The position numbers and the translations under genes were made by a program. DNA of 64,000 nucleotides from a virus: IMG/VR virus record IMGVR_UViG_3300025137_004926; one strand, given 5' to 3'. Positions within the stretch are counted from its first letter, which is position 1; the number at the start of each line of letters is the position of its first letter. The notes below the pieces were generated by a model that was not told the origin of the DNA, searched no databases, and worked only from the letters and a program-made list of their open reading frames with translations. Below are positions 8,070 through 30,917 of this stretch, one piece after another.

Positions 8070-8097
8070 TTGACAAATCTGCGAATCATGTTATAGT
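8070..8097 (+). promoter_or_regulatory. Early promoter with a GANTC site in the spacer
   Basis: TTGACA-aatctgcGAATCatgt-TATAGT. Confidence 0.75.
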
Positions 8098-8129
8098 ATA
8101 TACATAATCAAAAGAAAGAGGCAGTATAA

Positions 8130-8810
8130 ATGTTAAGATTTCTAAAGATGATGGGTAACGGTATTGTTACTTTAATGAATATAACTACCATAGGTGTATT
8201 AATGGCGTTCGCCGCCTTAGCTACAGGTACAACAATCATGTCAGATGAAACAAAACATGATGATTCTGTTGAGATAGTTATCCCTGTACAAATAGACCCA
8301 ACATCACGTATTGATATGGAATATTTCTTAATCGATCCTTATAAATTTAAAGATGAATTTTGTTTAGCACAAAATATCTTTTTTGAATCAAGTGTTGATA
8401 ACAAAGCAGGAATGGCCGCAGTAGCAGACGTTGTTCTCAATCGTGTAAAACATTCTTACTATCCTAATACTATTTGTGAAGTAGTATATCAAGCTAAAAT
8501 GAAAGAAAGCTGGAAAACAAAACAGTTTCCTGATTTACAGGATAGTGAACGTAAGTATATTCCAGTTAAACACAGATGTCAATTTAGTTGGTACTGTGAT
8601 GGTAAATCAGACGATATTCCATTAGGCTCAGAGAATTGGGTTAAAGCACAGATGATTGCTTGGGACATTATGCACAATGATGGACTACGAGGTATCACAG
8701 AAGGTGCAACACACTATCATGCTACATATGTTAAGCCACGTTGGGCTAGTCAACATAATATGGACTTAGTTGGTCGAATTGGTCTACACATTTTTTATCG
8801 TTGGAACTAA
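8130..8810 (+). CDS. SleB-like cell wall hydrolase (Hydrolase_2)
   Basis: CLAQNIFFES, AVADVVLNRV, CQFSWYCDG, GATHYHA, IGLHIFY; N-terminal TM segment. Confidence 0.9.
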   Translation: MLRFLKMMGNGIVTLMNITTIGVLMAFAALATGTTIMSDETKHDDSVEIVIPVQIDPTSRIDMEYFLIDPYKFKDEFCLAQNIFFESSVDNKAGMAAVADVVLNRVKHSYYPNTICEVVYQAKMKESWKTKQFPDLQDSERKYIPVKHRCQFSWYCDGKSDDIPLGSENWVKAQMIAWDIMHNDGLRGITEGATHYHATYVKPRWASQHNMDLVGRIGLHIFYRWN

Positions 8811-8930
8811 AAAACTCTTGCAATTTTATCTAATCTGATGTATACTAATATCAGTTTAAATGAAAACTAAACACCGAAATGTGATTAAACTAAAACGCAA
8901 TTTTGTCAACTACAGAAGAGGATTTATGAA

Positions 8931-9179
8931 GTGGCAAACAAAATTCAACGAGGTCGTAAGCCTCGTAAAATGTCTGCATCGATGGAGGAAGCAGTTAGTC
9001 TTCTGAAACCGATGAAAGGTCGTAGTGGGCTGTATGGTTGTTTTAGTAAAAACGACAACGGCGAGTACACTGAGGTAGGTGTATATAATTACTCAACCAA
9101 GAAATATGTAATATTTCGAAGTGAGCATGTTGATGGTACAGCCGTCGATGAAATTAGGGAAGTTATCAAGGGGCTTTAG
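8931..9179 (+). CDS. Hypothetical protein
   Basis: 82 aa ORF with a GAAGAGGA RBS. Confidence 0.65.
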   Translation: MANKIQRGRKPRKMSASMEEAVSLLKPMKGRSGLYGCFSKNDNGEYTEVGVYNYSTKKYVIFRSEHVDGTAVDEIREVIKGL

Positions 9180-9189
9180 GCCCTTTGAT
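9165..9189 (+). terminator. Hairpin at gene end (weak terminator or processing stem)
   Basis: ATCAAGGGGC-tttag-GCCCTTTGAT; no strong U-tract. Confidence 0.45.
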
Positions 9190-9207
9190 TACTATTAAGG
9201 TAGCTAA

Positions 9208-10380
9208 ATGCATATTGAGAATGAAATAAAATTAAACTACGATGATGTTCTAATTAGACCTAAACGTAGTACCTTAGGTTCACGTAAAGCAGTTGATTTA
9301 GAACGTGGATTTACTTTCCGTAACTACAAACCATACGTATCACCCGATGTATTACCAGATGGATATCCAGTAGTACAAGAACAATATAGACACTATCGTG
9401 GTACACCTATTATGGCAAGTAACATGGACGGTGTTGGGACATTTGAAATGGCAGATGAGTTAGCTGAACAAAATATCATGACTTGCTTAGTTAAAACTTA
9501 TTCAACTAATCAGCTTGTTAGTTTTTTTGATGGTGATATAGATAGTAAAAGAACAAACTATGTAGCTTATTCAATGGGCATCACTGAAAAAGATGAACAA
9601 AAATTTAGATTAGTTTATGAACAAGCACCTGGTATTAAGTATGTTTGTATTGATGTTGCAAACGGATATTCAGAAAGATTTACTGATTTCGTAAGAGAGT
9701 TTAGAAGTCACTATCCAAATGTTGTTATAATTGCTGGTAACGTAGTTACTGCGGATCAAACACAAGAATTAATTTTGAATGGGGCAGATGTTGTTAAAGT
9801 TGGCATCGGTCCTGGTAGTGTATGCACTACTAGAATACAAACTGGTGTGGGCTATCCTCAACTTTCGGCTGTCATTGAATGTGCAGATGCGGCTCATGGC
9901 CTTGGTGGACATATTATTGCTGATGGTGGGTGTAACTGCCCTGGAGATATAGCAAAGGCATTTGCTGGTGGCGCCGATTATGTAATGTTAGGAGGTATGT
10001 TAGCAGGACATGATGAAGGTGGTGGCGAAGTAATTACTAAACACTACGCCAACAGTGAAGCAACACTGTTAGACAATGGCAACTACATGCCGCACTATGA
10101 ACAAAAGCAATTTGTACAATTCTACGGCATGAGTTCAAATGCGGCTAATACAAAGCACTTTGGTGGATTAAAAGATTATCGTGCTAGTGAAGGTCGTGAA
10201 GTACTTGTACCATATAGAGGAAAAGTAGAAAATACAATACAAACTATTTTAGGCGGCATTCGCTCTACGTGTACATATGCAGGTGCAAAAAGGTTGAAAC
10301 ATTTATCAAAATGTGCTACATTTATTAGAACAAATAGTCAGTTTAATAAAACATATGAATCAACAACAACAAAGATGTGA
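9208..10380 (+). CDS. guaC: GMP reductase
   Basis: DDVLIRPKRSTLGSR, CIDVANGYSE, KVGIGPGSVCTTR, FYGMSS and YRASEG motifs. Confidence 0.95.
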   Translation: MHIENEIKLNYDDVLIRPKRSTLGSRKAVDLERGFTFRNYKPYVSPDVLPDGYPVVQEQYRHYRGTPIMASNMDGVGTFEMADELAEQNIMTCLVKTYSTNQLVSFFDGDIDSKRTNYVAYSMGITEKDEQKFRLVYEQAPGIKYVCIDVANGYSERFTDFVREFRSHYPNVVIIAGNVVTADQTQELILNGADVVKVGIGPGSVCTTRIQTGVGYPQLSAVIECADAAHGLGGHIIADGGCNCPGDIAKAFAGGADYVMLGGMLAGHDEGGGEVITKHYANSEATLLDNGNYMPHYEQKQFVQFYGMSSNAANTKHFGGLKDYRASEGREVLVPYRGKVENTIQTILGGIRSTCTYAGAKRLKHLSKCATFIRTNSQFNKTYESTTTKM

Positions 10381-10628
10381 TGGCTAAATATAAAATAAAC
10401 ATTGCTAAATCGAACACAGATATAGGGGTAGGGCTTCCATATTCTGTCATAGCACAGATATTACCAGAAAGTAATACCGATGGTGATATAGTAAAGTTGT
10501 TTAGAACAGATTTATCAGGGAGTTATTCACAAAAAGATATCTCTTGTCATATTGATAATTATACAAGAATTGCCACAATACGATTTAGAAATGAAAAAGA
10601 TTGTGCAGATTTCTTAATGAGATATTAA
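10377..10628 (+). CDS. Hypothetical protein
   Basis: 83 aa coupled ORF. Confidence 0.55.
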   Translation: MMAKYKINIAKSNTDIGVGLPYSVIAQILPESNTDGDIVKLFRTDLSGSYSQKDISCHIDNYTRIATIRFRNEKDCADFLMRY

Positions 10629-10651
10629 TAACTAACATAGAAAGGACCATA

Positions 10652-10882
10652 ATGGAATTTAATGACGGAATATTTAAGACATTAAAAGATTTAGCAGTAA
10701 AAAGTGATTCAATAACCCTTGCATTAATATATACTTTAGGACACATTATCATAGCAATGACAGTTGTTAGTCTAATGACAGGTGCAAGTTTATGGGAAGC
10801 AGGTTCAGTTGCATTAGTAGAACCAGCAATTAACGGTGTTTGGTTTTTTGTATTACATAAACTTTGGAAAAAGTTTGCATGA
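10652..10882 (+). CDS. DUF2061-like membrane protein
   Basis: IYTLGH..IAM.V...TGA..W.AG.VAL.EP..N.VWFFVLH.LW pattern; AAGGA RBS. Confidence 0.7.
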   Translation: MEFNDGIFKTLKDLAVKSDSITLALIYTLGHIIIAMTVVSLMTGASLWEAGSVALVEPAINGVWFFVLHKLWKKFA

Positions 10883-11274
10883 AAATAAATGAATGGGCCG
10901 ATAATTTAAGTCTGTTTGAAGACGGGACTGATAGATTAACCTATCTTATAGAACTTGCAAGAAAGTCTACTACTTTGCCACAAGAATTAAGAACAAAAGA
11001 TAGATTAGTAGGCGGATGTATGTCACAGATATGGATTGATGTAGGTGTTGTAGAAGATAAAGTGAAAGTATATTACGATAGTGATGCAATGATAACAAAA
11101 GGTATTACAAGTATTGTTGCAGATTGTTTCTCTGATATTCCAGTTGCAGAAGCAAAACAAATTACACATGATGATTTTCAAAGTCTAAATATTCAGCAGT
11201 TGTTATCACAACAACGTAGAAACGGATTAGGAAATTTAATCGAAACTATAAGAAAAAAGGTACACGTACTATGA
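10879..11274 (+). CDS. sufE: SufE family sulfur acceptor
   Basis: VGGCMSQIW, DSDAMITKG and LS.QRRNG motifs. Confidence 0.88.
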   Translation: MKINEWADNLSLFEDGTDRLTYLIELARKSTTLPQELRTKDRLVGGCMSQIWIDVGVVEDKVKVYYDSDAMITKGITSIVADCFSDIPVAEAKQITHDDFQSLNIQQLLSQQRRNGLGNLIETIRKKVHVL

Positions 11275-11594
11275 AATATGTAATAGATATAGATGGAACT
11301 ATTTGCACAGAAGTTCTATTAGCAAATGGCAGTAAAGATTATGCCAATCATATTCCTATGCCAGAACGCATTGACAAAGTAAATGAATTATATGATGCCG
11401 GTCATACTATCAAGTATATGACTGCACGTGGAGCCGTAAGTGGTGTGGACTATCACAACTTAACAAACAATCAATTAGTCAAATGGGGAGCTAAATTCCA
11501 TGAACTAAGTGTTGGTAAAAAAGAACACTATGATGTTTGGATTGATGATAAAGCATTTTGGAGTGAAGATTTTTTTCGAAAAGGCACATCATGA
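11271..11594 (+). CDS. HAD phosphatase (capsule biosynthesis phosphatase-like)
   Basis: DIDGTIC, YMTARG and IDDKA motifs. Confidence 0.8.
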   Translation: MKYVIDIDGTICTEVLLANGSKDYANHIPMPERIDKVNELYDAGHTIKYMTARGAVSGVDYHNLTNNQLVKWGAKFHELSVGKKEHYDVWIDDKAFWSEDFFRKGTS

Positions 11595-12001
11595 AGATAG
11601 GATTTACATGTAGTTCGTTTGACTTGTTACACGCAGGTCATACATTGATGTTAGAAGAAGCAAAAGCACAATGCGATTATCTTATTGTAGGATTACAAAC
11701 AGACCCTTCAATAGATAGACCAACAAAGAACAAACCCGTACAGACAGTTGTTGAAAGATATTTACAACTACGTGCATGTAAATACGTAGATGAGATTATT
11801 CCATATGGTACTGAACAAGACTTAGAAGATATTCTTTCAGGTATGGATATTGATGTAAGGATTTTAGGTGTAGAATACAGAGACAAAGATTTTACAGGTC
11901 ATGATATCTGTAAAAAACGTGAGATAGAAATACATTTTAATGAACGAGACCATAGGTTTAGTTCAAGTGACTTACGTATGAGGGTAGCTAAATGCAAATG
12001 A
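11591..12001 (+). CDS. Glycerol-3-phosphate cytidylyltransferase-like nucleotidyltransferase
   Basis: FDLLHAGH (HxGH) and R.H.FSSS motifs. Confidence 0.88.
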   Translation: MKIGFTCSSFDLLHAGHTLMLEEAKAQCDYLIVGLQTDPSIDRPTKNKPVQTVVERYLQLRACKYVDEIIPYGTEQDLEDILSGMDIDVRILGVEYRDKDFTGHDICKKREIEIHFNERDHRFSSSDLRMRVAKCK

Positions 12002-12321
12002 ATTTGTGGGAAATTGACGGACAGATAGTAAAAGAAGATGATAGATATACAGTAAAAGATAATACTTTATTAAAAAATTTAATAGTTAGTTCAACTACAT
12101 TACATTCAGGGAAATCTACCAGCGGACATAAACATGAAGGACAAGAAGAAGTTTATATGTTTTTAAAAGGTCATGGCACTATGGAACTTGATGATAAACT
12201 ATTACATGTCATTGAAGGTGATTGTGTATTAATCGAAGATGGTGTTTTTCACCGTGTGAACAATAATGGTAACGGTGATTTATATTTTGTGTGCGTTTTC
12301 GATGGAAGCAGAAATCATTAA
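11992..12321 (+). CDS. Cupin domain protein
   Basis: GHKHEGQEEVY...G.FHRV motif. Confidence 0.85.
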   Translation: MQMNLWEIDGQIVKEDDRYTVKDNTLLKNLIVSSTTLHSGKSTSGHKHEGQEEVYMFLKGHGTMELDDKLLHVIEGDCVLIEDGVFHRVNNNGNGDLYFVCVFDGSRNH

Positions 12322-12485
12322 TGAGAATCATACTAGTGATGTTAATGCTTTTATTAACCTCTTGCGCCAGCAATCCAACAGAAAAACAAAAAGAGGACAG
12401 AAAAAAATTGACAATTATACGTACAATTGGTTGTGTAGTAGTACCTACTTTACCTACATGTATAATACCAATACCAGGTAAGTGA
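12321..12485 (+). CDS. Small lipoprotein
   Basis: MRIILVMLMLLLTSC lipobox. Confidence 0.55.
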   Translation: MRIILVMLMLLLTSCASNPTEKQKEDRKKLTIIRTIGCVVVPTLPTCIIPIPGK

Positions 12486-12486
12486 T

Positions 12487-13401
12487 ATGAAAGTTTATAT
12501 AAATTATAGAGCAGGTAGTGGTGGTGATTTCTTAAAAGTAGCATTATGGTTATTGATGCATCCAGAAATTAAAATAGATTGGAATAAGACTGTTAAGTGG
12601 AAACCAGCACCAGTAAATCATGTAAAACCAGTACCAGGTTCAATAATATTTGCTGAACATGGTTCTACAAGATATCGATTATGTGGGTTACTAGAAGATG
12701 GATCTATAAAGCCTGCAACTATATTATCTAATGAAAGTGTAATTCAGTTTGGTAATACTTATGGATTTAAAGATAATACTATATCTAATATGTCATTTCT
12801 TTATGCACATAAGCATAATATACCAGTAAAAGATGCACTTGTAAAAATAGCAAAAGCCCAAATAAAAAATAAGTGGGTAGAAGATGAAGAAGATTTTGAG
12901 CATACAGTTATAGGTTCACATTATACATTTAACAATGAGTTGTTTGATATTGAAGAATTATATAAAAGTGTTAGTGGTTTATCATTTGACAAAATCATTT
13001 CTATTATACCTAAAAAACCAAGTGAGTCGCTTTTAATAAGACATTTAGATGTTATAAAAAACCATGGTATAAATCATGACCAAACAATAAATGAAACATA
13101 TAATAACTTACAAAAAATTGCACAAGTTATGAATAATGATATAAAAGCAAGAAATATTGCTGAACAACGTGGTTATGGTATTATATCATTTGAAGAACTA
13201 CATTGTTCAACTGATTTAGAACTAGTAACTGTACTAAGCGAACATGTAGAAGGGTTAGAAGTCAGCGATGCATACTTAAGTTTTCATAAAAAGTATACAG
13301 ATTTGAACAATATAAAAACACGACTAAACAGTAATAAACTAAAAATATGTAATGAAACTATTGAAGAATATATGAAAGAGGTAGATAAGTGGGTATTATA
13401 A
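12487..13401 (+). CDS. Hypothetical protein, possible sulfotransferase/P-loop-like fold
   Basis: N-terminal YRAGSGGDFL motif; 304 aa. Confidence 0.55.
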   Translation: MKVYINYRAGSGGDFLKVALWLLMHPEIKIDWNKTVKWKPAPVNHVKPVPGSIIFAEHGSTRYRLCGLLEDGSIKPATILSNESVIQFGNTYGFKDNTISNMSFLYAHKHNIPVKDALVKIAKAQIKNKWVEDEEDFEHTVIGSHYTFNNELFDIEELYKSVSGLSFDKIISIIPKKPSESLLIRHLDVIKNHGINHDQTINETYNNLQKIAQVMNNDIKARNIAEQRGYGIISFEELHCSTDLELVTVLSEHVEGLEVSDAYLSFHKKYTDLNNIKTRLNSNKLKICNETIEEYMKEVDKWVL

Positions 13402-14174
13402 AAGAAAAGGTATTAGAAGTAAAACATTATACAGATAACTTAATGCATTTTAAAACTACACGTGCCTCTGGGACGAGGTTTCGTGATGGAGAGTTCTTAA
13501 TGATTGGGTTAGATAATTGGTCAGAGAAATTACAAAAGAACAAACCAATTATGAGAGCATATTCGGTTGCATCACCAAACTATGAAGAATATATGGAATG
13601 GTACTCAATTAAGGTACCAGATGGCCCATTAACGAGTAGATTACAACATATAAAACCAGGTGATGAAATACTTGTCAATGATAAATCAGTTGGCACATTA
13701 GTCATGCCTAATCTTAAACCAGGCAGAAATTTATATCTACTTGCTACTGGTACTGGTGTTGCACCATTTATGAGTTTAGTAAGAGGATTAGAAACGTATG
13801 AAGATTTTGATAATGTAATCTTAGTATGGGGAACTAGAACAGTAAAAGAACTTGCATATAAAGAATTCTTGGAAGGGTTGAATGAACATGAGATATGGGG
13901 AGAAATAACTCAAGGTAAGTTTAAATTTTATCCTACAGTAACACGTGAAGAATTCGAAAATACAGGCAGAGTAACTACTGCTATGTATGAAAACAAAGTA
14001 CAAGATAAATTAGGATTACCTAAATTAGACAAAGAACAAGATAGAATTATGATATGTGGCTCAATGCCGATGAATGTTGAATTAAAAGAATACTTAGAAG
14101 GATTAGGTTTTACAGAAGGAAGTAATAGGGTCCAAGGTGAGTATGTATTAGAAAAAGCATTTGTAGAAAAATGA
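13389..14174 (+). CDS. fpr: Ferredoxin/flavodoxin--NADP+ reductase
   Basis: RAYSVAS, GPLTSRL, ATGTGVAPF, TVTRE, MICGS and EKAF motifs. Confidence 0.95.
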   Translation: MGIIKEKVLEVKHYTDNLMHFKTTRASGTRFRDGEFLMIGLDNWSEKLQKNKPIMRAYSVASPNYEEYMEWYSIKVPDGPLTSRLQHIKPGDEILVNDKSVGTLVMPNLKPGRNLYLLATGTGVAPFMSLVRGLETYEDFDNVILVWGTRTVKELAYKEFLEGLNEHEIWGEITQGKFKFYPTVTREEFENTGRVTTAMYENKVQDKLGLPKLDKEQDRIMICGSMPMNVELKEYLEGLGFTEGSNRVQGEYVLEKAFVEK

Positions 14175-14208
14175 TAAGTACATACATTAGAAAGGAATTA
14201 AGGAACTT

Positions 14209-14451
14209 ATGAAAGCAACAGTATACAGTAAAAATGCATGTGGGTATTGTGTTCAAGCAAAATCTTTACTAAAGATGAAAGGTATAGAAATTCAAGAATT
14301 TAATATACAACTTGATAACGATGCACGTGTGAGATTATTTGAAGAATGTAGTAAAATTAATGTAGTACCAAGAACTGCACCTCAGATATGGTTAGACGAT
14401 GAATATATCGGCGGATATCACGAACTACAGAAACATTTCGACAATGCATGA
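14209..14451 (+). CDS. Glutaredoxin
   Basis: CGYC, TAPQI and IGG motifs. Confidence 0.92.
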   Translation: MKATVYSKNACGYCVQAKSLLKMKGIEIQEFNIQLDNDARVRLFEECSKINVVPRTAPQIWLDDEYIGGYHELQKHFDNA

Positions 14452-15067
14452 TTATACTTTTTTAACAGGTGCACCAGGATCAAGATGGTCTGGTATTGCA
14501 CAAATCATTTCACAGAACTTCAATTATAACAATTCAGATGAAACAGACTGGAGAGTTTACAAGCATGGAGAATTCTCAGGACATAGAGGCGCTTATTGGG
14601 GTCCCCATATGGAATTAGGTCAAAACTTTCATAGTCTTGAAAGAAATTACAGTAATGATATCGTAGGATTTAAGAAAGCATGTGATATAGGATTTATAGA
14701 ACCTATTTCAGCAAAACCAAAGATGATTAAGTGTCACCAATTTGCTTACAGTTTAGATTGGTTAAATCAAAATATAGAAAATTCACAGATACTAATAGTC
14801 AAAAGAGGAAACCAAGAATGCTTTGATTGGTGGCATGAAGCAGGTGGTTGGAATATATACTATCCAAAATATACATGGTATGTAGATGATAATCATATGA
14901 TGCATTATATTGAAGCAGAAAATAAACTATTAAATGAATTCGTTAAAAGAAATGGTGAATGGGAAGATTTCAATGAAGAATGGTTGACAGAAGAATATGG
15001 TGAACATAATATTGAAATTAGTAAAGACAAGTACAAAGACCTAAAAGTTTGCCTAATTAAAACTTGA
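14444..15067 (+). CDS. Hypothetical protein, sulfotransferase/P-loop-like
   Basis: FLTGAPGSRWSG and IKCH motifs. Confidence 0.55.
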   Translation: MHDYTFLTGAPGSRWSGIAQIISQNFNYNNSDETDWRVYKHGEFSGHRGAYWGPHMELGQNFHSLERNYSNDIVGFKKACDIGFIEPISAKPKMIKCHQFAYSLDWLNQNIENSQILIVKRGNQECFDWWHEAGGWNIYYPKYTWYVDDNHMMHYIEAENKLLNEFVKRNGEWEDFNEEWLTEEYGEHNIEISKDKYKDLKVCLIKT

Positions 15068-15091
15068 CATCATACAAAAATGTGCTATATT
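15064..15091 (+). promoter_or_regulatory. Sigma70-type early promoter
   Basis: TTGACA...TGC-TATATT, overlapping the upstream stop codon. Confidence 0.65.
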
Positions 15092-15114
15092 AATATATAA
15101 TTACAAGGAGTATT

Positions 15115-15619: not shown

Positions 15620-15667
15620 ATACAATATATTGTAAGTAAACTAAACCACAAATTGTAGTAAATACTT

Positions 15668-16036: not shown

Positions 16037-16042
16037 TAAATA
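16037..16042 (+). promoter_or_regulatory. T4-like late promoter core (TAAATA) upstream of putA
   Basis: GATAAATA ending 25 nt before the ATG; the same motif precedes many structural genes. Confidence 0.6.
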
Positions 16043-16067: not shown

Positions 16068-18914
16068 ATGAAGTGCTATCCACATAACGACTATTATAGA
16101 TATGATGAATTAGAAATCATTCCAAGACTTCTAATTGCATCTAAGGCATCTACTGAGATTCTTCAATCAATTATGATTGAGGCAGAGACCATTCAATCCA
16201 AAATTACGGACGAACATTACTTGACTCATATAATGAAGTCATATGATATGAGTGCGCCTGAAGGTATGGCACTTATGACTCTTTGTGAATCTCTTTTGCG
16301 TACACCAGATACAGAAACACAGGATAGTCTTATTAAAGATAAACTATCAAATGCACAATGGTATAAATTATCTAATAATAGTTTTTATTCTAAAGCGGCC
16401 AGTATTGCACTAACACAAGCACAAATGCTTTCAGCGTATGAAGGTGTGGTAGCAAGACTAGGATGGCCAGCAGTAAGAAAAATAACAAAAACTATAGTAA
16501 AACAAATGGGTACTCTATTTGTTATGGGACGTAATATAGAATCTGCAATAAAAAACAAGAAACAAGGTTATACATATTCATTTGATATGTTAGGAGAGGC
16601 CGCAACAAATTGGGAAGATGCTAATTTGTATTATGAAAGATATCTTAGTGCGGCTATTAAGTCAAAAGAATCTATATCAATAAAACTGAGTGCAATACAC
16701 CCTAGATATGAATTACATAACCATATAGACGTTTTACAGACGTTAGTGCCTAAACTAGCCGCTATAGCTAGAGTATGCGAAGAAAACGATACTACAATGT
16801 TTATTGATGCAGAAGAGGCACGTAGACTTGATATAAGCATTATGGTACTTGAAGAAATGCTTAAAACATACAAATTTAAAGATTTTACTATTGGATTTGC
16901 TTTACAGGCTTATCAGAAACGTTCTTTTTTCGTTATAGACACACTTGAGACAATAGCAGAGAACAGTAGAGCCAAACTAGCTATACGGCTTGTTAAAGGC
17001 GCATATTGGGACACTGAGATAAAGTATGCACAACAAGAAGGACTAGATTATCCAGTATTCACTAGAAAAGAGAATACTGATATATCTTATCTAGCATGTG
17101 CTAAAAAGCTAATGCACAGTGAAAGATTAAAAACTGCTTATGCTACACATAATCCATATACAGTTGCCGCAATACAATGTGCAGGTAAATGTAGTAAACA
17201 AGACTATGAGTTTCAAAAATTATATGGTATGGGTGACAGTTTATTCAGTCAGATAAAAGATGATGTAAAAGTTAGAGTATATGCACCAGTTGGTGAATAT
17301 AAAGATTTGTTAGCATATCTGATAAGAAGACTATTAGAAAATGGTGCTAACACTAGTTTTGTTCATACGAATGAAATTGTAGATCCTTTTAAAGAAGTTA
17401 AAAAGAAAAAGAAATCACTTAAGTCATGGAAAGATTTATATCCTGGAAGAAAGAATAGTAAAGGATATGATTTAACTGATCCAGCTATGGTTGATTATAT
17501 GTTAGACTCTGCGGTTCACCCTCACCATGATGAAGAAATAATTTCAGTAGAAAGTACTATAGAACATTTATATAATTATCAAGAACAATGGGCTAGTACA
17601 ACATTTGAACATAGAAAAAAGATTTTATTGGCATGTGCAGATAGTTTAGAAGAAGAAATGATTCCTGCGGCAAACAGATTAGTAAAATATTCTTTTAAAA
17701 CATATCCAAATGCAGTTGCAGAAATTAGAGAGTCAGTTGATTTTATTCGTTACTACGTAGAACAAGCTGAATTAATGTATGGAGAAAATATCAAAATAGG
17801 TTATACCGGTGAATATAATTCTACAGTTTTTAATCCTAGAGGAACTTGGATGGTAATAGCACCTTGGAATTTTCCTTATGCAATTTTCTTAGGACCAATC
17901 GTAGCCGCATTGATTACAGGAAATACCGTATTGGCAAAACCCGCACCACAGACCCTAGAAATTGCAAAAGTTGTATTGGGTGCAATGCATCACGTTGGTG
18001 TACCAATAGATGCACTACGTATGTGTGACCCTGATATTGAAGAGGCTTCTAAAGCAATCAAAGATGAACGTATATCAGGTATAACGTTCACAGGCTCTCA
18101 TAAGAGTGCTAAGACTATACAGAGGCTTATTGCTGAACGTGATGGGCCTATTATACCTTTCATTGCAGAAACAGGTGGTATAAATTCTATGATTGCAGAT
18201 TCTACATGTTTGCCTGAACAATTAGTACAAGATGTATCGTATGGTGCATTTGATAGTGCAGGACAAAGATGTTCAGCAACTAGATTTTTATTCATTCAAA
18301 AAGAAAACAGTGACGAAGTTATTCGTATGTTAACTCATAAAATTAAAGTAATATCACTTGGTAATGCAGATGATTTAAATACAGACGTATCACGTGTTAT
18401 TGATGGTGTGGCATATGCAAAGATACAAGAAAGAATTGCAGTACTTGAAGAAAACGAAACATTAATTGCAACGAAATCTCGTAATGGAAAAGAGTTACCA
18501 AAATTAATTATCCCACCAAGTGCTTATCTTGTAACAGACTACAAAAAGTATTTTGATGAAGAAATATTTGGTCCATTGTTACATGTTTATGTTTATGAAA
18601 AAGATGAATTAGATGAAATAGTATCTTTTATAAATGAAAGTAAATTTGGACTAACATTGAGTATACATTCACGTGTCACTAGTTTCTATGATAACATAGC
18701 CAAGAAAATGAAGATAGGTAACATTTATATAAACAGAAACCAAATAGGTGCAGTTGTAGAAACTCAACCATTTGGTGGATACGGTCTAAGTGGGACAGGA
18801 CCTAAAGCAGGTGGCCCAGATTATCTAACTCCTTATGTATGGGAAAAACATATAAGTATCAATACTTCTGCTATCGGCGGAGACACTTTACTATTGACTT
18901 CTAATAACGAATAG
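16068..18914 (+). CDS. putA: Bifunctional proline dehydrogenase / P5C dehydrogenase PutA
   Basis: PRODH motifs DMLGE, IKLSA.HPRY, DAEE, RLVKGAYWDTEIK, ATHN, RRLLENGANTSF; ALDH motifs PWNFP, FTGS, ETGG, SAGQRCSA, EEIFGP, QPFGG. Confidence 0.96.
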   Translation: MKCYPHNDYYRYDELEIIPRLLIASKASTEILQSIMIEAETIQSKITDEHYLTHIMKSYDMSAPEGMALMTLCESLLRTPDTETQDSLIKDKLSNAQWYKLSNNSFYSKAASIALTQAQMLSAYEGVVARLGWPAVRKITKTIVKQMGTLFVMGRNIESAIKNKKQGYTYSFDMLGEAATNWEDANLYYERYLSAAIKSKESISIKLSAIHPRYELHNHIDVLQTLVPKLAAIARVCEENDTTMFIDAEEARRLDISIMVLEEMLKTYKFKDFTIGFALQAYQKRSFFVIDTLETIAENSRAKLAIRLVKGAYWDTEIKYAQQEGLDYPVFTRKENTDISYLACAKKLMHSERLKTAYATHNPYTVAAIQCAGKCSKQDYEFQKLYGMGDSLFSQIKDDVKVRVYAPVGEYKDLLAYLIRRLLENGANTSFVHTNEIVDPFKEVKKKKKSLKSWKDLYPGRKNSKGYDLTDPAMVDYMLDSAVHPHHDEEIISVESTIEHLYNYQEQWASTTFEHRKKILLACADSLEEEMIPAANRLVKYSFKTYPNAVAEIRESVDFIRYYVEQAELMYGENIKIGYTGEYNSTVFNPRGTWMVIAPWNFPYAIFLGPIVAALITGNTVLAKPAPQTLEIAKVVLGAMHHVGVPIDALRMCDPDIEEASKAIKDERISGITFTGSHKSAKTIQRLIAERDGPIIPFIAETGGINSMIADSTCLPEQLVQDVSYGAFDSAGQRCSATRFLFIQKENSDEVIRMLTHKIKVISLGNADDLNTDVSRVIDGVAYAKIQERIAVLEENETLIATKSRNGKELPKLIIPPSAYLVTDYKKYFDEEIFGPLLHVYVYEKDELDEIVSFINESKFGLTLSIHSRVTSFYDNIAKKMKIGNIYINRNQIGAVVETQPFGGYGLSGTGPKAGGPDYLTPYVWEKHISINTSAIGGDTLLLTSNNE

Positions 18915-24169: not shown

Positions 24170-24177
24170 AGGATAAC

Positions 24178-24501: not shown

Positions 24502-24503
24502 AC

Positions 24504-26108
24504 ATGCAACCTTTACTGGATATTTTTTATCTAACATATAAAAATGATTTTTCACAAAAAAACCTTGACAGACTAAAAGAGAAGGCAGGGTTCCCACAAC
24601 GTGTGGTCAATGTAGCAGACATTGATGGCATTTATAATGCACACAAAGAATGTGCAAGACAATCAAAAACAGAACACTTTTTTGTAGTAGACGGCGATGC
24701 CTGGATTGCTGATGATTTCGATTTCTCTTATGTACCTAGTACAAGTGATGAAGTTTATCCTGAAACATGTTCGGCTCAATGTACACATGTATGGAGAGCG
24801 ATTAATCCTGCTACAGGAAAAACTTATGGGTATGGTGGTGTAAAGTTATTTGCAAGAGAGGCATTCTTTGATAAAGCATGGGCTCATGTAGAGTTTCCAG
24901 GTGTTGATGTAACATCAGAAGTTGCTAGACGAGGTTTTCCATATTTACCAATAGAACAAGTATCCAACGAAACACGTTTTAATACAACAGCCTTTAATGC
25001 TTGGAAAGGTGCATTTAGAGAAACCACTAAACTTGCAAGTGGAATTGCTACCCAAGATAGAAGAAAGAAATTACAAGAGTGGAAGACACCATTAGAAGAT
25101 GTAGGGTTTCGTGCAGAAATCTTATTAGGGTCTATCATGGGAGAAAATTATGGTACTGTTAACGTAGGTAAAGGTGACAAGTTACATAGGATTAATAATT
25201 GGAAATGGTTGAACACTTGGTTCAAACAAAGAAAGAATTGGAAAGCACAGCCGATAGTTGAATTTGATACAACATATCCTGATGGTAGATATATGCTAAA
25301 CGGTATCCAACGATATGCTGAATGGACAAATCATCCAAATGTAGAAGATTTAGATACTATGAGATTAGCTGTTATCGATAGCAACCAAGACCATGTATTC
25401 AATGCAGTTGAAAAACTTATATGGGATAAAAAATATAAGTCAGAGCATTTACAAATATTCTTACAATATCTTTATAGTGGAATAAAGAATAGATTTAATC
25501 CAGAAAGATGCATTCATTTTATGTATGAGTATTTTAATACAGAACAAGACCCATATTTTGGTATGCTAATGGGAGCATTCAAGGAAGCACCAGAAGTAAA
25601 CATTGTAGATGCACATTCTAATTATCAAGTAGAAAGCAAAACATGGTTAATTGATAATCTAGTTAAGCTGGATAAACGATTTGACGATGCAGTATTCATT
25701 GGTGGTTGGTTAGGTATATCAACATTCTGGACGCACAAAAGAAATATTGTACATCGTATTACAAATATTGATATGGACCCAGAAGCAATAAAGTTTAGTA
25801 ATAAACTTAATCAATTCAATGATACGTACTCAGGCTTAGTAGGAGACGCATATGACTACGATTATGATAAACATGACCTAGTTATCAATACGAGTGCAGA
25901 ACACATGACAGAAGAATGGTTTGATAAAGTTAAACCAGGTACCACAGTAGCAATACAAACAAATGATTTTCATGAAATAGATGAACATATAAACACAGTT
26001 AATGACTTGACAGAGTTAGAAAAAAAGTATACTATGTCTAAAGTACTATTTTTAGGAACTAAAGATTGTGACAGATACAATAGGTTTATGTTAGTAGGTA
26101 TAAAATAA
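24504..26108 (+). CDS. Glycosyltransferase-like domain fused to a class I SAM-dependent methyltransferase-like domain
   Basis: N-terminal VVDGD (DxD) and YGYGGVKLF; C-terminal FIGGWLG, NIDMD and VINTSAEH. Confidence 0.6.
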   Translation: MQPLLDIFYLTYKNDFSQKNLDRLKEKAGFPQRVVNVADIDGIYNAHKECARQSKTEHFFVVDGDAWIADDFDFSYVPSTSDEVYPETCSAQCTHVWRAINPATGKTYGYGGVKLFAREAFFDKAWAHVEFPGVDVTSEVARRGFPYLPIEQVSNETRFNTTAFNAWKGAFRETTKLASGIATQDRRKKLQEWKTPLEDVGFRAEILLGSIMGENYGTVNVGKGDKLHRINNWKWLNTWFKQRKNWKAQPIVEFDTTYPDGRYMLNGIQRYAEWTNHPNVEDLDTMRLAVIDSNQDHVFNAVEKLIWDKKYKSEHLQIFLQYLYSGIKNRFNPERCIHFMYEYFNTEQDPYFGMLMGAFKEAPEVNIVDAHSNYQVESKTWLIDNLVKLDKRFDDAVFIGGWLGISTFWTHKRNIVHRITNIDMDPEAIKFSNKLNQFNDTYSGLVGDAYDYDYDKHDLVINTSAEHMTEEWFDKVKPGTTVAIQTNDFHEIDEHINTVNDLTELEKKYTMSKVLFLGTKDCDRYNRFMLVGIK

Positions 26109-27004
26109 TGAAATCAATTTATATAATTGCATATCACGGACATCGTGCTAATGCAGAGACTAGACAGAAAAGAAGTGATAATCATAACAAACAAATAGAT
26201 TGGTGGTTAAATTATGATAAAGAAATTGAAATTAGAATACTCGCTATGGACTTTGATGAAGTTGAGTATTGGGATAATGATAGGGTTCATTATATCGACA
26301 GGCTTGATGGTCCTACTCCTCCTGCAAGTGCAAGAAATATATTATTCAATCACTTCTATGACACCAAAGATGAGTGGGCTATTTTTGCAGATAGTGATGC
26401 AATTCTTAATCTTCACCCTAATTTCCCTCACACTCATATCAACATTTGCGATATCTTTCGTAAAAGTCCGGGAAAGTTTAAGGACATTACGTTATTCGCA
26501 CCGCACAACGACCAAAGACCGGGCGATGGGGCATTCTATGACAAGTTTAATGGAGTAGATAAAGAATATAAGGATGTAGACTGGAATACAGATTTTGTAT
26601 TCGATAGAAAACTTACTCATATGAAAGGTACACTTTTCTTTCTTAGAAACAATAAAGAAAGATTAATGATGGACGAATACTTTAATGTTCATCCATTGGG
26701 CACGAAGCCTATACTAGGTGGAGAAGATGATGAATTTATTGTGTCATGTGTAATGGCAAATAAAGGAACATATATGTTACGAAACATTATGTTAAAAGAA
26801 ATGACTGCTGGTTCAACTTGGAGCGATACAGAAACACGCAAAGACGATGAAAACATGCGTGATGATTATATTGCAAAAAAATATAATTTACCAAGTGACA
26901 AGAGTAAATGGACACAGATAATCAAAAAAGAAAGAACAGGTTATCCAAAGCAGTTACGTATTAACCCTAACCAGACAGATGCTTTTGGCAGTCTGTTTGA
27001 CTAA
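26108..27004 (+). CDS. GT-A fold glycosyltransferase-like protein
   Basis: ARN, FADSD and GGED motifs. Confidence 0.6.
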   Translation: MKSIYIIAYHGHRANAETRQKRSDNHNKQIDWWLNYDKEIEIRILAMDFDEVEYWDNDRVHYIDRLDGPTPPASARNILFNHFYDTKDEWAIFADSDAILNLHPNFPHTHINICDIFRKSPGKFKDITLFAPHNDQRPGDGAFYDKFNGVDKEYKDVDWNTDFVFDRKLTHMKGTLFFLRNNKERLMMDEYFNVHPLGTKPILGGEDDEFIVSCVMANKGTYMLRNIMLKEMTAGSTWSDTETRKDDENMRDDYIAKKYNLPSDKSKWTQIIKKERTGYPKQLRINPNQTDAFGSLFD

Positions 27005-27015
27005 AGAGATAGCTA

Positions 27016-27504
27016 GTGAAAATAGTAAAAGATAAAATCAATGATTATTTTAGATGGGTTAAAGGAACAGAATTAGTTGAGTTAGACGATATAGATGTAT
27101 CCGAAGATCCAGTCAGACCAGAGTTAACCTTAGGCTGGCGAATTACAAATGGACGTAAAATTTACGGACTGCAATATGAAAACAATGTAGAAGCAATTAT
27201 TTGTATTGCATACACAAGTGATATCCCAACAAGTGTAAGAGAATTAGATATGATGAGTGAACTTGCACATTTAAAAAAGGATAGAAAAGTAGCTATTGCT
27301 TATACAGTATGGTCAAGAAAAAGAGGTGCTGGTAAAGAAATAGTTAATAAAGTAATTGAATTTGCAAAGAAACAAGGAATAACTAGAGTTGTTACTTTGT
27401 CTCCACTTACACCAATGGCTACACATTTTCATATTAGTAATGGTGCTAAACAAATTAGCATTAATGATGATACTCAAAATTTTGAATACACCTCAAAAAC
27501 TTGA
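27016..27504 (+). CDS. GNAT-fold protein resembling the malonyl-CoA decarboxylase catalytic domain
   Basis: AIAYTVWS...GAG..IV..V......TRVVTLSP motif. Confidence 0.55.
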   Translation: MKIVKDKINDYFRWVKGTELVELDDIDVSEDPVRPELTLGWRITNGRKIYGLQYENNVEAIICIAYTSDIPTSVRELDMMSELAHLKKDRKVAIAYTVWSRKRGAGKEIVNKVIEFAKKQGITRVVTLSPLTPMATHFHISNGAKQISINDDTQNFEYTSKT

Positions 27505-27528
27505 CAAACTAGCGAATCGTGTTATAGT
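27501..27528 (+). promoter_or_regulatory. Early promoter with a GANTC site in the spacer
   Basis: TTGACA-aactagcGAATCgtgt-TATAGT. Confidence 0.75.
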
Positions 27529-27557
27529 ATAAACATACTCAGAGAAAAGGACTTAGT

Positions 27558-28163
27558 ATGTCAGATTTGGAAACAATTAAAGTTCCTCATACATTCTGTA
27601 TTTTTGCAAATGATACTCGTAAAATGTATCATATTTGGCAAACTTCACAAGAAAATTATAAGCAGAACGTAACAGTTACAAATGCTTTTTCAAAAGCCGC
27701 ATATGCTCTTTCAGGAAAAGATTCTGCACAAGCAGGTTCTACTACAACTTTCTTACGAATTCTTAGCAGTACTAACAAAAACGAATGGGCTGTTTCTTAT
27801 GAAGAATTAGGTGATGTTGATAAAGAAGATTTGCAATCTGAATATCAGTTATTTTCTGAAATCTATGAATCAGAAGGATATACTTGTATCACACGTGACC
27901 CAAAAGTACGTATGCAGACAGGACGTTATGCAGGTAAAAAGTGGACTGTACGTAAACTAGAAAACATGCGTTATGTACAAGTAAAAGAATGTGTCACAAA
28001 AATGCTTGAAGATTGTTTAATAGATGAAATTGACTACAATTCTGTATCAAATCAGATTTCAACACATGCTCTAAAGTTAGGTTCAGAAATTGAGAATATT
28101 AGCCAACTTTGGAACTATGTTTTTCACAATTACTCCGAATTCGGAGACAACGTAGCACAATAA
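27558..28163 (+). CDS. Hypothetical early protein
   Basis: 201 aa ORF with an AAGGA RBS. Confidence 0.75.
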   Translation: MSDLETIKVPHTFCIFANDTRKMYHIWQTSQENYKQNVTVTNAFSKAAYALSGKDSAQAGSTTTFLRILSSTNKNEWAVSYEELGDVDKEDLQSEYQLFSEIYESEGYTCITRDPKVRMQTGRYAGKKWTVRKLENMRYVQVKECVTKMLEDCLIDEIDYNSVSNQISTHALKLGSEIENISQLWNYVFHNYSEFGDNVAQ

Positions 28164-28215
28164 TCTACGTACTTAACACTGCACATATCCTAGTAAATAT
28201 CAATGAGAGAAAAAT

Positions 28216-28647
28216 ATGTACTATTCTATAAAAGGCGGGTTGAAAAAAGAGAAAGAATTGGTAATAAAGGCCTTATGGTTTGCCAAAGATTTTCTTCTAC
28301 CTAGACATAAACACATAGAAATAGATATAGAACTAAGAAAGAACATCAAATGTGATGCAGACGTAGTAAGCGGTGATGAATACCGTGAATATATCATGCG
28401 AGTAAGACGTGGTCTTAATGAAGACGATATATTAACTAGTGTTTTCCACGAATTTGTTCATATTAAGCAAGATGTACGAAAAGAACACCCATTATTTGAG
28501 TGTTCAGATACTCCATACTTAGAACGCCCGTGGGAAGTAGAAGCATTTGACCTGCAAGAAATCATGCTCACTGCTTATCGTAAAGAAGAAAAGCAGGTTG
28601 CGGCTAAAAAATTCAAAAAAATATCAGCGAAAAACTTGACAAAATAG
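28216..28647 (+). CDS. Zinc metallopeptidase-like protein
   Basis: HEFVH (HExxH) and PWEVEA motifs. Confidence 0.75.
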   Translation: MYYSIKGGLKKEKELVIKALWFAKDFLLPRHKHIEIDIELRKNIKCDADVVSGDEYREYIMRVRRGLNEDDILTSVFHEFVHIKQDVRKEHPLFECSDTPYLERPWEVEAFDLQEIMLTAYRKEEKQVAAKKFKKISAKNLTK

Positions 28648-28663
28648 CATTCCATGTTATTAT
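28636..28663 (+). promoter_or_regulatory. Sigma70-type early promoter
   Basis: TTGACA...TGT-TATTAT, followed by TAATCAGGAG. Confidence 0.65.
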
Positions 28664-28687
28664 ATATACATAATCAGGAGAAAATGT

Positions 28688-29815
28688 ATGCAAAATATCA
28701 CAAGTTTAGCAAGTTTATATAAAAGAGATACAAAAGGCAAATTAAGAATTTGGACTGTAGAATACGGTTTTGATTCTGATGATGTTGCTGGTACAAGAAC
28801 TATTGCCGGATTAATTGATGGACAAAAAGTTACAAGTGAATGGAATATATCCATTGCTAAGAATGTTGGTAAAGTGAATGGTACAACTTCCAAAACACAA
28901 TCTATTTCAGAAGCACAATCTAGTTGGGACCAAAAAGTAGATAAAGAATATTTTGAGAACATAGATGATGTTGATAGTTATGAACTATTCAAACCTATGT
29001 TAGCTAATGACTTTACAAAGAAGCCAGTCACTAGCGGTTACACACAACCGAAACTAGATGGTATTAGATGTTTAGTTGATAAGCATGGTATGAATTCAAG
29101 AAGTGGAAAACCAATTAATAGTTGTCCACATATTATGAAAACTTTACAAACTGTGATTGATAATAATCCTAGTGTTGTTTTAGATGGCGAACTTTATAAT
29201 CATAATCTTAAAGCAGACTTTCAAAAGATTGTTTCTCTAGTTAGAAAAGTAAAGTGTAGACCAGAAGAAATTGCCGAGAGTGCAGAATTAGTTGAGTATC
29301 ATGTTTATGATATGTTTGATAAAAATAATCCAGATATGACATTTACTGAAAGAAGTAAATGGTTAGAAGATAATGTTGGAAAGTTTGCTAATCCATTAAT
29401 GGTTGTTTTAGTTGAAACTGCGAAAACAGATACTACTGCCGAAATTGATAAAATGTATGGCGAATACACAGAGGCAGGGTATGAAGGTCAAATGGTAAGA
29501 CAAGATACTCCTTATGAATGTAAGAGAAGTAAAAATCTTTTAAAGAGAAAAGAATTCATTACAGAAGAATTTAAAGTAGTAAGTGTCGAAGAAGGAAATG
29601 GTAACTGGTCAGGTTATGCAAAAAGATTTAATCTTCAACTTTCTAATGGTACAAAATTTAGTTCAGGTGTTAGAGGCTCACAAGATAAATTAAAAGAACT
29701 TCTAAATGCTGAAACTCCTACTTGGGCAACTTGTAGATATTTTGAATTATCGAATGATGGAGTTCCAAGATTTCCAGTTGTTATCGATTATGGATACGGC
29801 GAAAGGGATGACTAA
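28688..29815 (+). CDS. ATP-dependent DNA ligase
   Basis: PMLA, QPKLDGIRC, DGELY, YEGQMVR, LLKRK and PRFP motifs. Confidence 0.93.
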   Translation: MQNITSLASLYKRDTKGKLRIWTVEYGFDSDDVAGTRTIAGLIDGQKVTSEWNISIAKNVGKVNGTTSKTQSISEAQSSWDQKVDKEYFENIDDVDSYELFKPMLANDFTKKPVTSGYTQPKLDGIRCLVDKHGMNSRSGKPINSCPHIMKTLQTVIDNNPSVVLDGELYNHNLKADFQKIVSLVRKVKCRPEEIAESAELVEYHVYDMFDKNNPDMTFTERSKWLEDNVGKFANPLMVVLVETAKTDTTAEIDKMYGEYTEAGYEGQMVRQDTPYECKRSKNLLKRKEFITEEFKVVSVEEGNGNWSGYAKRFNLQLSNGTKFSSGVRGSQDKLKELLNAETPTWATCRYFELSNDGVPRFPVVIDYGYGERDD

Positions 29816-30671
29816 TATAGATTTAACATCTACTGGTCTTAAATCATATAGCGACACAAAGTACTTTGACGATAATGAAAAGGTAGTAGTGGAGCATATG
29901 AGAAATGATGATTCACTGTCTGACTCATTTAGTATAAACCAACTTGGATATTCATTAGACAGATTTTTAAACTTTGGTTATACTAAAAACTCTTACGGTT
30001 TTAGAGATTACAAAAGCAGAGAATATGTATTAGAAAATTCTGAAAATGAAATATGGTGTTTTGGGTGTAGTTGGACTGAAGGCTATGGTGTACCTGCTGA
30101 GTATTCTTGGCCTTCTCGTATTGAAGAAAAGACAGGCGCTATTGTAAAGAACTTTGGTGTATCTAATTCTGGTCCCTTTACTGCACACAGAATAATGAAA
30201 TCATGGTTAGAGAATGTAAAACATAAACCTAATAAAATATATATGTTAGGTTGGTGGCCTGGGCGATTTGAATACAAATTCAAAGACACATACATTATGA
30301 TTAATGTTAGGCTTCTATCTAGCGACATGCTTTCTAAAACTCATGGAGTAACTAAAAAAGATTTAAGACAAATACAAGATATATTTCTATCACTTAATAA
30401 TTATAATGAAATTAATAATAGTATAAAAGAATTATGCAATTATCACAATATAGAAGTGAAACACGTATCCAATATCATAGATAAAAACTTCTCAAATGAT
30501 TGGGATAGTAAAATGTTAATGGATTTAAAGATAAAGCAATCTAACTTTAAAGACTATTCGCATCTGAAAGATTGGGGCAGGGATGTGGACAACATTAATG
30601 ATAACAATCCTAAGTGTCACCCTGGAATAAAATATCACAATATTATCGCAGAAACGTTCTTAAAAACTTGA
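29808..30671 (+). CDS. SGNH/GDSL hydrolase-like protein
   Basis: FGCSWTEG, NFGVSNSG and D...HPG motifs. Confidence 0.65.
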   Translation: MTNIDLTSTGLKSYSDTKYFDDNEKVVVEHMRNDDSLSDSFSINQLGYSLDRFLNFGYTKNSYGFRDYKSREYVLENSENEIWCFGCSWTEGYGVPAEYSWPSRIEEKTGAIVKNFGVSNSGPFTAHRIMKSWLENVKHKPNKIYMLGWWPGRFEYKFKDTYIMINVRLLSSDMLSKTHGVTKKDLRQIQDIFLSLNNYNEINNSIKELCNYHNIEVKHVSNIIDKNFSNDWDSKMLMDLKIKQSNFKDYSHLKDWGRDVDNINDNNPKCHPGIKYHNIIAETFLKT

Positions 30672-30695
30672 CAAATTAGCGAATCGTGTTATATT
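30668..30695 (+). promoter_or_regulatory. Early promoter with a GANTC site in the spacer
   Basis: TTGACA-aattagcGAATCgtgt-TATATT. Confidence 0.75.
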
Positions 30696-30724
30696 AATTA
30701 TATAATCAAGAGAGAGAGAGTTAA

Positions 30725-30886
30725 ATGATAGAGCAATATGAAAACGAAATTAAAAAGTTGGAAAAATATCTAACTACTTTTTATGGTAACACTTCATCAG
30801 TAAAAATGAAGAAGTATGCGATTGAAAAAAAGATACAAACATACAAAGATATTGTTAACGAAATGAAGTTAATACTTGCTATATAA
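30725..30886 (+). CDS. Small early protein (53 aa)
   Basis: Translated by hand; lies between two early promoters. Confidence 0.6.
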   Translation: MIEQYENEIKKLEKYLTTFYGNTSSVKMKKYAIEKKIQTYKDIVNEMKLILAI

Positions 30887-30889
30887 AAC

Positions 30890-30917
30890 TTGACAATATC
30901 ACGAATCGTGCTATATT
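30890..30917 (+). promoter_or_regulatory. Early promoter with a GANTC site in the spacer
   Basis: TTGACA-atatcacGAATCgtgc-TATATT. Confidence 0.75.

Follow-up and report, generated by a model that had tools for sequence, protein, structure and literature searches.

What is a fixed copy of GAATC doing in the spacer separating the -35 from the -10 element of a phage promoter? The question is raised by a 64,000-nucleotide stretch of viral DNA (IMG/VR record IMGVR_UViG_3300025137_004926; hereafter the window), in which the pattern TTGACA-N7-GAATC occurs exactly four times, at 8070, 27501, 30668 and 30890, always on the + strand. This compares with 0.06 occurrences expected, and a count of four was reached in no dinucleotide shuffle. 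A first-pass annotation of this DNA had proposed that the word (here called the box) is a CcrM-type GANTC methylation site read by the sigma70 cofactor GcrA. We show that all four are members of a conserved promoter class, of sigma70 type with an extended -10, in a clade of uncultured marine giant phages.

A conserved promoter class in marine giant phages

The four boxed (class I) promoters share the layout AAAAC-TTGACA-N6-C-GAATC-(A/G)-TG-N-TATA(G/T)T, followed by a leader, a purine-rich ribosome-binding site and ATG. The first-pass annotation had placed GAATC 13 nt after the first T of the -35 box, in the context CGAATCA or CGAATCG, with a -10 at offset 22; all four sites bear this out, with CGAATCA at 8070 and CGAATCG at the other three. 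The better parse, however, is a 16-bp spacer and a TGn extended -10: TG occupies offsets 19-20, the hexamer (TATAGT or TATATT) fills offsets 22-27, and TGT or TGC precedes it at every site. In an independent consensus scan the four sites ranked at the top (11/12 matches, with TG), and they fit the sigma70-type -35/-10 elements that a host primary holoenzyme would be predicted to use. We call them early by promoter type only. The leader after the -10 is conserved in two sub-types, ATATACATAATCA or AATTAAGTAATCA (8098-8110, 27529-27541, 30696-30708 and 30918-30930, and in relatives), which suggests a functional 5' leader common to early messenger RNAs. Searching the window with GAWTCRTGNTA returned five matches, against 0.69 expected, all at the four class I promoters; the fifth is the reverse reading of a palindrome at the 30890 promoter (30897-30907). 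Sister promoters at 5774, 15064, 28636 and 42930 have the same AAAAC-TTGACA frame without any GANTC (class II), so that the division into two promoter classes drawn in the first-pass annotation was upheld.

The class extends well beyond the window. AAACTTGACA-N7-GAATCRTG was found in more than 118 IMG/VR stretches; these lie on marine contigs ranging from 4 to 342 kb, often with several copies per contig. As a genome-wide stand-in for the window we used G002, a complete IMG/VR record (3300020469_003050; 342,607 bp, with direct terminal repeats) that shares synteny with the window, the proteins being roughly 90% identical. G002 contains 16 copies of TTGACA-N7-GAATC, all on one strand, and four other relatives contain 5-9 each, while the reversed pattern, used as a control, gave 0 matches. 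When G002 promoters were chosen blind to the spacer (TTGACA-N13-TGnTAnnnT with AAAC upstream), 19 were obtained, of which 13 carry GAATC, 3 carry GATTC at the same position and 3 carry neither. The genome-wide test of positional enrichment proposed in the first-pass annotation thus came out in its favour (16/19).

When the four promoters were paired with their G002 orthologues, 11 substitutions fell in the bases after the -35 box and 0 in GAATC, in agreement with the earlier remark that the spacer varies while this core is kept. The box is retained at the orthologue of the 8070 promoter (G002 317235), where 3/7 spacer bases differ, and at that of the 27501 promoter (337736), where 5/7 differ; 3 spacer bases differ at the orthologue of 30668 (340307), and that of 30890 lies at 340525. 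The box is also kept across relatives that differ in GC (guanine plus cytosine) content (35% versus 40%) and whose protein identity falls to 25-60%. Among 103 similar strong promoters from unrelated viral contigs, only 2 have GANTC where the box would stand. Promoters of the Pseudomonas giant phage PA5oct gave 0 matches, the box was likewise absent from the other cultured relatives examined, and the boxed promoter was found in no cultured phage searched.

Could the box be a functionless passenger on a mobile promoter cassette, spread by duplication or recombination in the style of T4 early promoters? T4-type early promoters are very strong, are conserved beyond their hexamers without a GANTC element, and flank small variable genes; in the mobile cassettes of this type, an early promoter is paired with a stem-loop, flanks variable genes and mediates shuffling. 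The class I promoters share with them the conservation beyond the hexamers and the adjoining small variable genes, and differ in having the GANTC element. The 201-residue gene behind the 27501 promoter was not found in G002 by tblastn, including at the orthologous place, and class I promoters therefore flank variable gene cassettes. They are also very alike from about -40 to +8. Nevertheless, the six adjacent spacer bases diverge freely among orthologues and paralogues whereas GAWTC and its flanks do not, and the box persists through the differences in base composition and protein identity given above. A passenger is highly improbable on this evidence. Recent duplication of one promoter, the simpler alternative that the first-pass annotation had raised, also fails, as the box is clade-wide and is kept where the spacer has diverged. 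We are all but certain that the box is real and selected: its recurrence, its conservation between orthologues, its rarity in unrelated promoters (2/103) and its absence from PA5oct make it a selected, modular, clade-specific element.

Anatomy of the box and likeness to GcrA sites

Counted from the -10 hexamer, the box is a 7-bp element, M-GA(A/T)TC-R, at about -21 to -17, 7 bp past TTGACA and 4 bp ahead of the -10 hexamer. The base before it is C or A in 43/43 sites collected with a flank-free pattern; the base after it is G or A, which is partly imposed by the search pattern. CGAATCG makes up 55 of 109 boxes, while elsewhere around GAWTC a preceding C and a following G each occur in about 10% of cases. 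As to the centre base, more than 118 IMG/VR stretches held GAATC in the same frame; there were 15 distinct instances of GATTC, 1 of GACTC and 0 of GAGTC. The box word is therefore GAWTC, with one orientation preferred roughly ten-fold: the site named in the first-pass annotation stands, and its word, GANTC, has to be narrowed, since a G/C centre almost never occurs. The fit to the GcrA consensus YGAKTCK (bottom strand Y-GATTC-K), claimed for the four window sites, was found at 4/4 of them and at 108 of 109 GAATC boxes of relatives.

Two further features concern how the box might be read. A second GAWTC lies directly after the -35, 7 bp upstream of the main box, in 25 of 121 (21%) distinct boxed promoters. 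Palindromic extension is missing from 59 of 126 boxes and most have no dyad symmetry past the core, which fits a monomeric reader of a small site better than a dimeric operator; a subset nonetheless forms the 11-bp palindrome CACGAWTCGTG, whose 17 occurrences compare with 6.6 expected for independent positions. In another phage group, seen at six loci on unrelated IMG/VR contigs (L171, L181, L190, L200, L209 and L240), one orthologous promoter carries GCGAATGC or GCGAACGC at the register that GCGAATCG occupies here; these words are near the box and are not GANTC.

The box might instead be an intrinsic promoter-strength element, acting through a spacer contact with sigma70 or beta-prime or through a DNA shape adapted to the polymerase of the host. 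The whole promoter is strongly conserved from about -40 to +8, including the non-standard 16-bp spacer, the TGn and the leader, and a purine (R) follows the box position in box-less promoters too, so that this R may belong to a -16 element. However, about one fifth of otherwise identical promoters have no box, which marks it as a module and not a core part, and comparable promoters of unrelated viruses and of PA5oct rarely or never contain it. GAATC and GATTC also interchange at one position and a second copy can stand upstream, so the word behaves as a unit.

Such a unit resembles the site of GcrA. This protein favours YGAKTCK in its methylated form (consensus TGATTCG), attaches to region 2 of sigma70, and promotes both the binding of polymerase and the formation of the open complex (PMC4647560). 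Upstream of start sites, its boxes gather at -20 +/- 1 and -30 +/- 2 (PMC9976885), with +5 to +30 as an alternative position in GcrA-dependent promoters. The phage box is centred at about -19 when counted from the -10, and its distance from the -35 equals that in the scaffold used for cryo-electron microscopy of GcrA with RNA polymerase (TTGACA-CCCGGGC-G(m6A)ATC-CCTGC-TATAAT, box -22 to -18; m6A, N6-methyladenine; PMC9976885). The second box, centred at about -26, falls just outside the published -30 +/- 2 class, and no enrichment of GANTC downstream of the start site was seen among distinct boxed promoters. Promoters of Caulobacter crescentus under GcrA and CcrM (the PcsM class; Haakonsen 2015, PMC4647560; Wu 2023, PMC9976885) and the phage promoters are alike in their sigma70-type -35/-10 elements, in having GAATC on the non-template strand of the spacer, 7 bp after TTGACA (in the phage with a predicted centre near -20), in their YGAKTCK flanks, and in a short site that behaves as one unit and has no extended dyad. 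They differ in the spacer (16 bp in the phage, 17 in Caulobacter), in the box lying 1 bp nearer the -10 in the phage, and in the A/T-only centre of the phage word.

Sites of a host cell-cycle regulator have been described in promoters of alphaproteobacterial phages as CtrA boxes ('lytic deferment'; Mascolo 2022, PMC9437464), and such a regulator is the candidate here. The CtrA system has another regulator and another site (TTAA-N7-TTAA), with binding tested by experiment, whereas the phage box, set beside both the CtrA and the Caulobacter cases, is a candidate site defined by its sequence. Membership of the boxed promoters in the GcrA-promoter family cannot be claimed.

The likeness to GcrA and CcrM sites would be coincidental if the box were the site of another sequence-specific protein, be it a clade-specific phage activator or shut-off factor (delivered by the virion or made early) or an unrelated host factor. 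The clade-specificity of the box and its absence from PA5oct and other cultured relatives agree with this, as do the excess of CACGAWTCGTG, the failure to find a phage GcrA or CcrM in five related genomes, and the phage's own RNA-polymerase accessory factor, a GreA/GreB homologue (7511-8065); moreover, most genes near boxed promoters have no known function. Yet most boxes lack the extended dyad, and 5-7 bp is short for a typical dimeric regulator. Three coincidences would be needed (the YGAKTCK match, the GcrA position and the existence of a GAWTC-specific CcrM), and the genome-wide depletion of GAWTC that the clade shares with phages of alphaproteobacteria, described below, would be left unexplained. 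We regard a different reader as unlikely.

Depletion of GAWTC and the candidate host

The word that is kept in promoters is avoided across the clade's genomes. Under a third-order Markov expectation, the observed/expected ratio for GANTC was 0.66 for G002 and 0.67 for the window, and three other clade members gave 0.58, 0.70 and 0.62. GAWTC (0.55-0.66) was always below GASTC (0.68-0.88), and GAATC/GATTC was the first or second most depleted of 512 5-mers in the 4 ranked clade members. In G002, GANTC density is 1.72/kb in coding and 3.05/kb in non-coding DNA (1.8-fold), with control palindromes showing the opposite; a higher non-coding density has been described in genomes that carry CcrM (PMC3973325).

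Using a set of control phages that are few, hand-picked and not phylogenetically independent, we found lower GANTC ratios in phages of alphaproteobacterial hosts (n = 10, 0.09-0.93: HTVC019P 0.09, HTVC008M 0.18, SIO1 0.48, phiCbK 0.65, HMO-2011 0.71, Atu_ph07 0.79, Cr30 0.82, DSS3phi2 0.88, HTVC010P 0.93 and Phosso 0.93) than in phages of other hosts (n = 6, 0.87-1.25: KVP40 0.87, RsoM2USA 0.90, Syn9 1.02, P-SSM2 1.10, PA5oct 1.11 and SCTP-2 1.25; Mann-Whitney p = 0.005). The clade falls below all 6 non-alphaproteobacterial controls and within the range of the 10 phages of alphaproteobacteria, and this k-mer evidence points indirectly to an alphaproteobacterial host. The lowest ratios belong to pelagiphages, with 37 GANTC against about 203 expected in HTVC008M and 6 against 66 in HTVC019P; the pelagiphage HTVC010P does not avoid the word.

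Depletion outside promoters is independent of the flanks, and TfiI- or HinfI-type restriction could therefore equally cause it. The explanation of the box as an intrinsic strength element would assign the depletion to avoidance of such an enzyme, and other restriction-like words are avoided too (GCAGC wholly, as well as GAGCT, GATCT and GGATG). An enzyme cutting GAWTC would, however, be expected to purge the word from promoters as well, and with the box behaving as a module this pairing of causes seems to us rather improbable. As to the other words, GCAGC/GCTGC is missing altogether from the window (45 expected), from G002 (208 expected) and from G005 (111 expected), and is at its normal frequency in clade member G003 (317 against 307); GAGCT, GATCT and GGATG are likewise depleted in the window, G002 and G005. 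The lack of GCAGC looks like total, subclade-specific avoidance of a BbvI-/TseI-type site or of a target of the phage's own nuclease.

The A/T-only centre of the box, which at first seemed a mismatch with CcrM and its GANTC site, fits a GAWTC-specific CcrM instead. In SAR11 and marine Rhizobiales, the word methylated by CcrM homologues is GAWTC, as TfiI/HinfI protection assays showed, and it is GAWTC and not GASTC that is depleted in SAR11 genomes (log2 observed/expected for GAWTC about -1.3; PMC8919816). These systems (Hiraoka 2022, PMC8919816) and the phage clade have in common the A/T-only centre, GAWTC below GASTC and the surface ocean; the former are documented from host enzymes and host genomes, the latter from the phages' own DNA only.

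The search for gcrA and ccrM homologues suggested in the first-pass annotation lent no support to a phage-encoded GcrA. Neither GcrA (PF07750) nor a CcrM-type methylase (PF01555; one sub-threshold match) was found in five related phage genomes, so that any methylation, and its reading, must come from the host. Two open reading frames (ORFs) with DPPY/NPPY motifs were considered as methylases and rejected, being an Rv2179c-like exoribonuclease and a doubtful 181-residue protein. Among 401 sampled alphaproteobacterial genomes (a tally that takes in the unpublished genomes G049 and G249, neither of which carries a specific claim here), 261 have a GcrA gene. These include an abundant low-GC marine lineage of HIMB59 type (1.41 Mb, about 35% GC in a 20-kb sample), whose GcrA has an 82%-identical tblastn match in the metagenome-assembled genome (MAG) CM1_5m.P70, whose CcrM is GAWTC-specific by experiment (PMC8919816). 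Plausible hosts do exist. A GC content of 34% was dropped as a bar to an alphaproteobacterial host, both because PA5oct (33% GC) infects a host of 66% GC and because SAR11-type hosts are themselves AT-rich.

The best-supported reading, to us an even call, is that the box acts in the manner of a GcrA box placed on a site for CcrM-type (GAWTC) methylation by an alphaproteobacterial host. A host CcrM-type methylase, GAWTC-specific as in SAR11 and marine Rhizobiales, would mark the adenines of the box; GcrA, held on sigma70 region 2, would dock on the methylated box through its small DNA-binding domain, at the spacer face that lies away from the polymerase; and docked GcrA would stabilize polymerase binding and the open complex, yielding very strong promoters for the phage's first genes. 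The box-less sister promoters would fire without its help. Two ideas of the first-pass annotation, a switch-off by under-methylation and a link of expression to the host's cell cycle, are speculation, as is a methylation timer that tells injected from newly made DNA. The fully specified version appears quite unlikely as a whole: that this abundant clade of ~340-kb phages infects GAWTC-methylating alphaproteobacteria (broad SAR11, HIMB59-type, marine Rhizobiales), and that the CcrM mark and GcrA form an epigenetic switch by which methylated injected DNA fires the boxed promoters and unmethylated progeny DNA stays silent.

Several observations, besides the failure to find GcrA and CcrM in the related phages, count against a role for GcrA. 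As the promoter is conserved throughout from about -40 to +8, conservation of the box is by itself not special, and the R that follows it recurs in box-less promoters. The depletion is not only flank-independent; high-affinity contexts are not preferentially depleted. A marine survey by single-molecule real-time sequencing reported no GANTC or GAWTC methylation in 163 viral genomes (PMC8919816), and a published scan for GcrA sites in phages of alphaproteobacteria gave no signal (PMC9437464). No such promoter class was found in HTVC008M, HTVC010P, HTVC019P, phiCbK, Cr30, DSS3phi2, SIO1, HMO-2011, Atu_ph07 or Phosso, and in small marine alphaproteobacterial genomes the architecture is not in excess. 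The nearest cultured relative, PA5oct, infects a gammaproteobacterium.

Attempts to assign the host by the promoter word, conserved proteins and PutA likewise gave no host. The boxed-promoter word had 19 matches in 596 Gb of prokaryote genomes, 18 of them chance and 1 a true family member, a phage contig binned in a Flavobacteriaceae MAG; we give this binning little weight. Two conserved phage proteins had no relatives in prokaryote genomes, and the phage PutA, only 41-44% identical to any sampled Pseudomonadota PutA, is too distant to inform on the host. psbA was not found in the phage DNA, which makes a cyanophage unlikely.

Gene context, comparable phages and possible meaning for host takeover

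Coordinates of the promoters and of selected genes are collected in Table 1. At three promoters, the TGA within the -35 TTGACA is the stop codon of the upstream gene (27502-27504, 30669-30671 and 15065-15067), so that gene end and following promoter are packed very tightly. Three TTGAC(A/T) words lie within 90 bp upstream of the tRNA-Trp gene (37160-37270; tRNA, transfer RNA), one of them followed by CACGAATCAG in another register and without a clear -10; this cluster may be a degenerate or alternative promoter.

Table 1. Promoters and selected genes of the window, in window coordinates
Feature	Coordinates	Strand	Details
Class I promoter (8070)	8065-8104	+	AAAAC 8065-8069; -35 TTGACA 8070-8075; box CGAATCA 8082-8088 (GAATC 8083-8087); TG 8089-8090; -10 TATAGT 8092-8097; predicted start near 8104
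SleB-type cell wall hydrolase/endolysin	8130-8810	+	Behind the 8070 promoter; PF07486, E 2e-23; PHROG endolysin family
Class I promoter (27501)	27496-27535	+	-35 27501-27506; box CGAATCG 27513-27519; TG 27520-27521; -10 TATAGT 27523-27528
201-residue gene	27558-28163	+	Behind the 27501 promoter; without Pfam or PHROG match
Class I promoter (30668)	30663-30702	+	-35 30668-30673; box CGAATCG 30680-30686; -10 TATATT 30690-30695
53-residue ORF	30725-30886	+	Behind the 30668 promoter
Class I promoter (30890)	30885-30924	+	-35 30890-30895; box inside 11-bp palindrome CACGAATCGTG 30900-30910; -10 TATATT 30912-30917
107-residue ORF, then small ORFs	30948-31271	+	Behind the 30890 promoter
Class II promoter (5774)	5769-5802	+	17-bp spacer; no box
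Class II promoter (15064)	15059-15091	+	No box
Class II promoter (28636)	28631-28663	+	AAAAC-TTGACA-N13-TGT-TATTAT; GCATTCC replaces box; upstream of ATP-dependent DNA ligase gene
Class II promoter (42930)	42925-42958	+	17-bp spacer; TG; no box
Rv2179c-like 3'-5' exoribonuclease	4708-5244		
GreA/GreB-family transcription factor	7511-8065	+	184 residues; both Pfam domains, E 8e-22 and 6e-10
Bifunctional PutA, full-length	16068-18914		948 residues
ClpA-like double-AAA ATPase	46875-49094		739 residues

The window has a GC content of ~34-35% and is transcribed almost wholly from one strand. It encodes phage-like replication proteins (a clamp loader and the ATP-dependent DNA ligase), large tail-fibre-like proteins and enzymes of cellular type (PutA, an IMPDH/GMP-reductase-like enzyme, UvdE, the ClpA-like ATPase and the GreA/GreB homologue). 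The gene of the last lies directly upstream of the 8070 promoter; a phage-borne factor for the polymerase secondary channel is, to our knowledge, unusual. Five tRNAs are present (Leu-UAA, Glu-UUC, Arg-UCU, Pro-UGG and Trp-CCA), a set resembling that of PA5oct and probably inherited. The window spans the ends of the G002 record, with 750-32008 corresponding to G002 309,757-341,632 and 32,900-63,907 to G002 544-31,683; those ends meet at window 32008-32900, where the tRNA cluster (Leu, Glu, Arg, Pro; 32014-32895) is found.

The closest cultured relatives are giant Pseudomonas phages of the PA5oct group (55% identity in the clamp loader), followed by giant phages of Ralstonia, Sinorhizobium, Agrobacterium, Salicola and others. 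PA5oct, which depends on its host's RNA polymerase (Lood 2020, PMC7318152), is like the clade a giant phage with TTGAC/TATAAT-type promoters and related replication proteins, and differs from it in lacking the GAWTC box (0 matches) and in a GANTC content that is not depleted (1.11).

Transcription that depends on methylation state is familiar from promoters with Dam GATC sites, as in P1 cre, Mu mom and IS10. These share with the boxed promoters an adenine-methylation site within the promoter; the word, the methylase and the reader differ, and the comparison is one of analogy only. CtrA boxes in phages and phage-encoded homologues of GcrA or CcrM are already known from the literature, whereas a GcrA-box promoter class in a phage is not reported in the literature accessible to us.

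If GcrA does read the box, these phages would possess a promoter class built to recruit an alphaproteobacterial methylation reader, a new route to the takeover of host transcription. The box would then provide a host clue, obtained from sequence, for widespread uncultured giant marine phages, and, in the fully specified version above, would double as a marker for assigning hosts to uncultured phages. The shift of marine CcrM enzymes to GAWTC would, in turn, gain a biological read-out.

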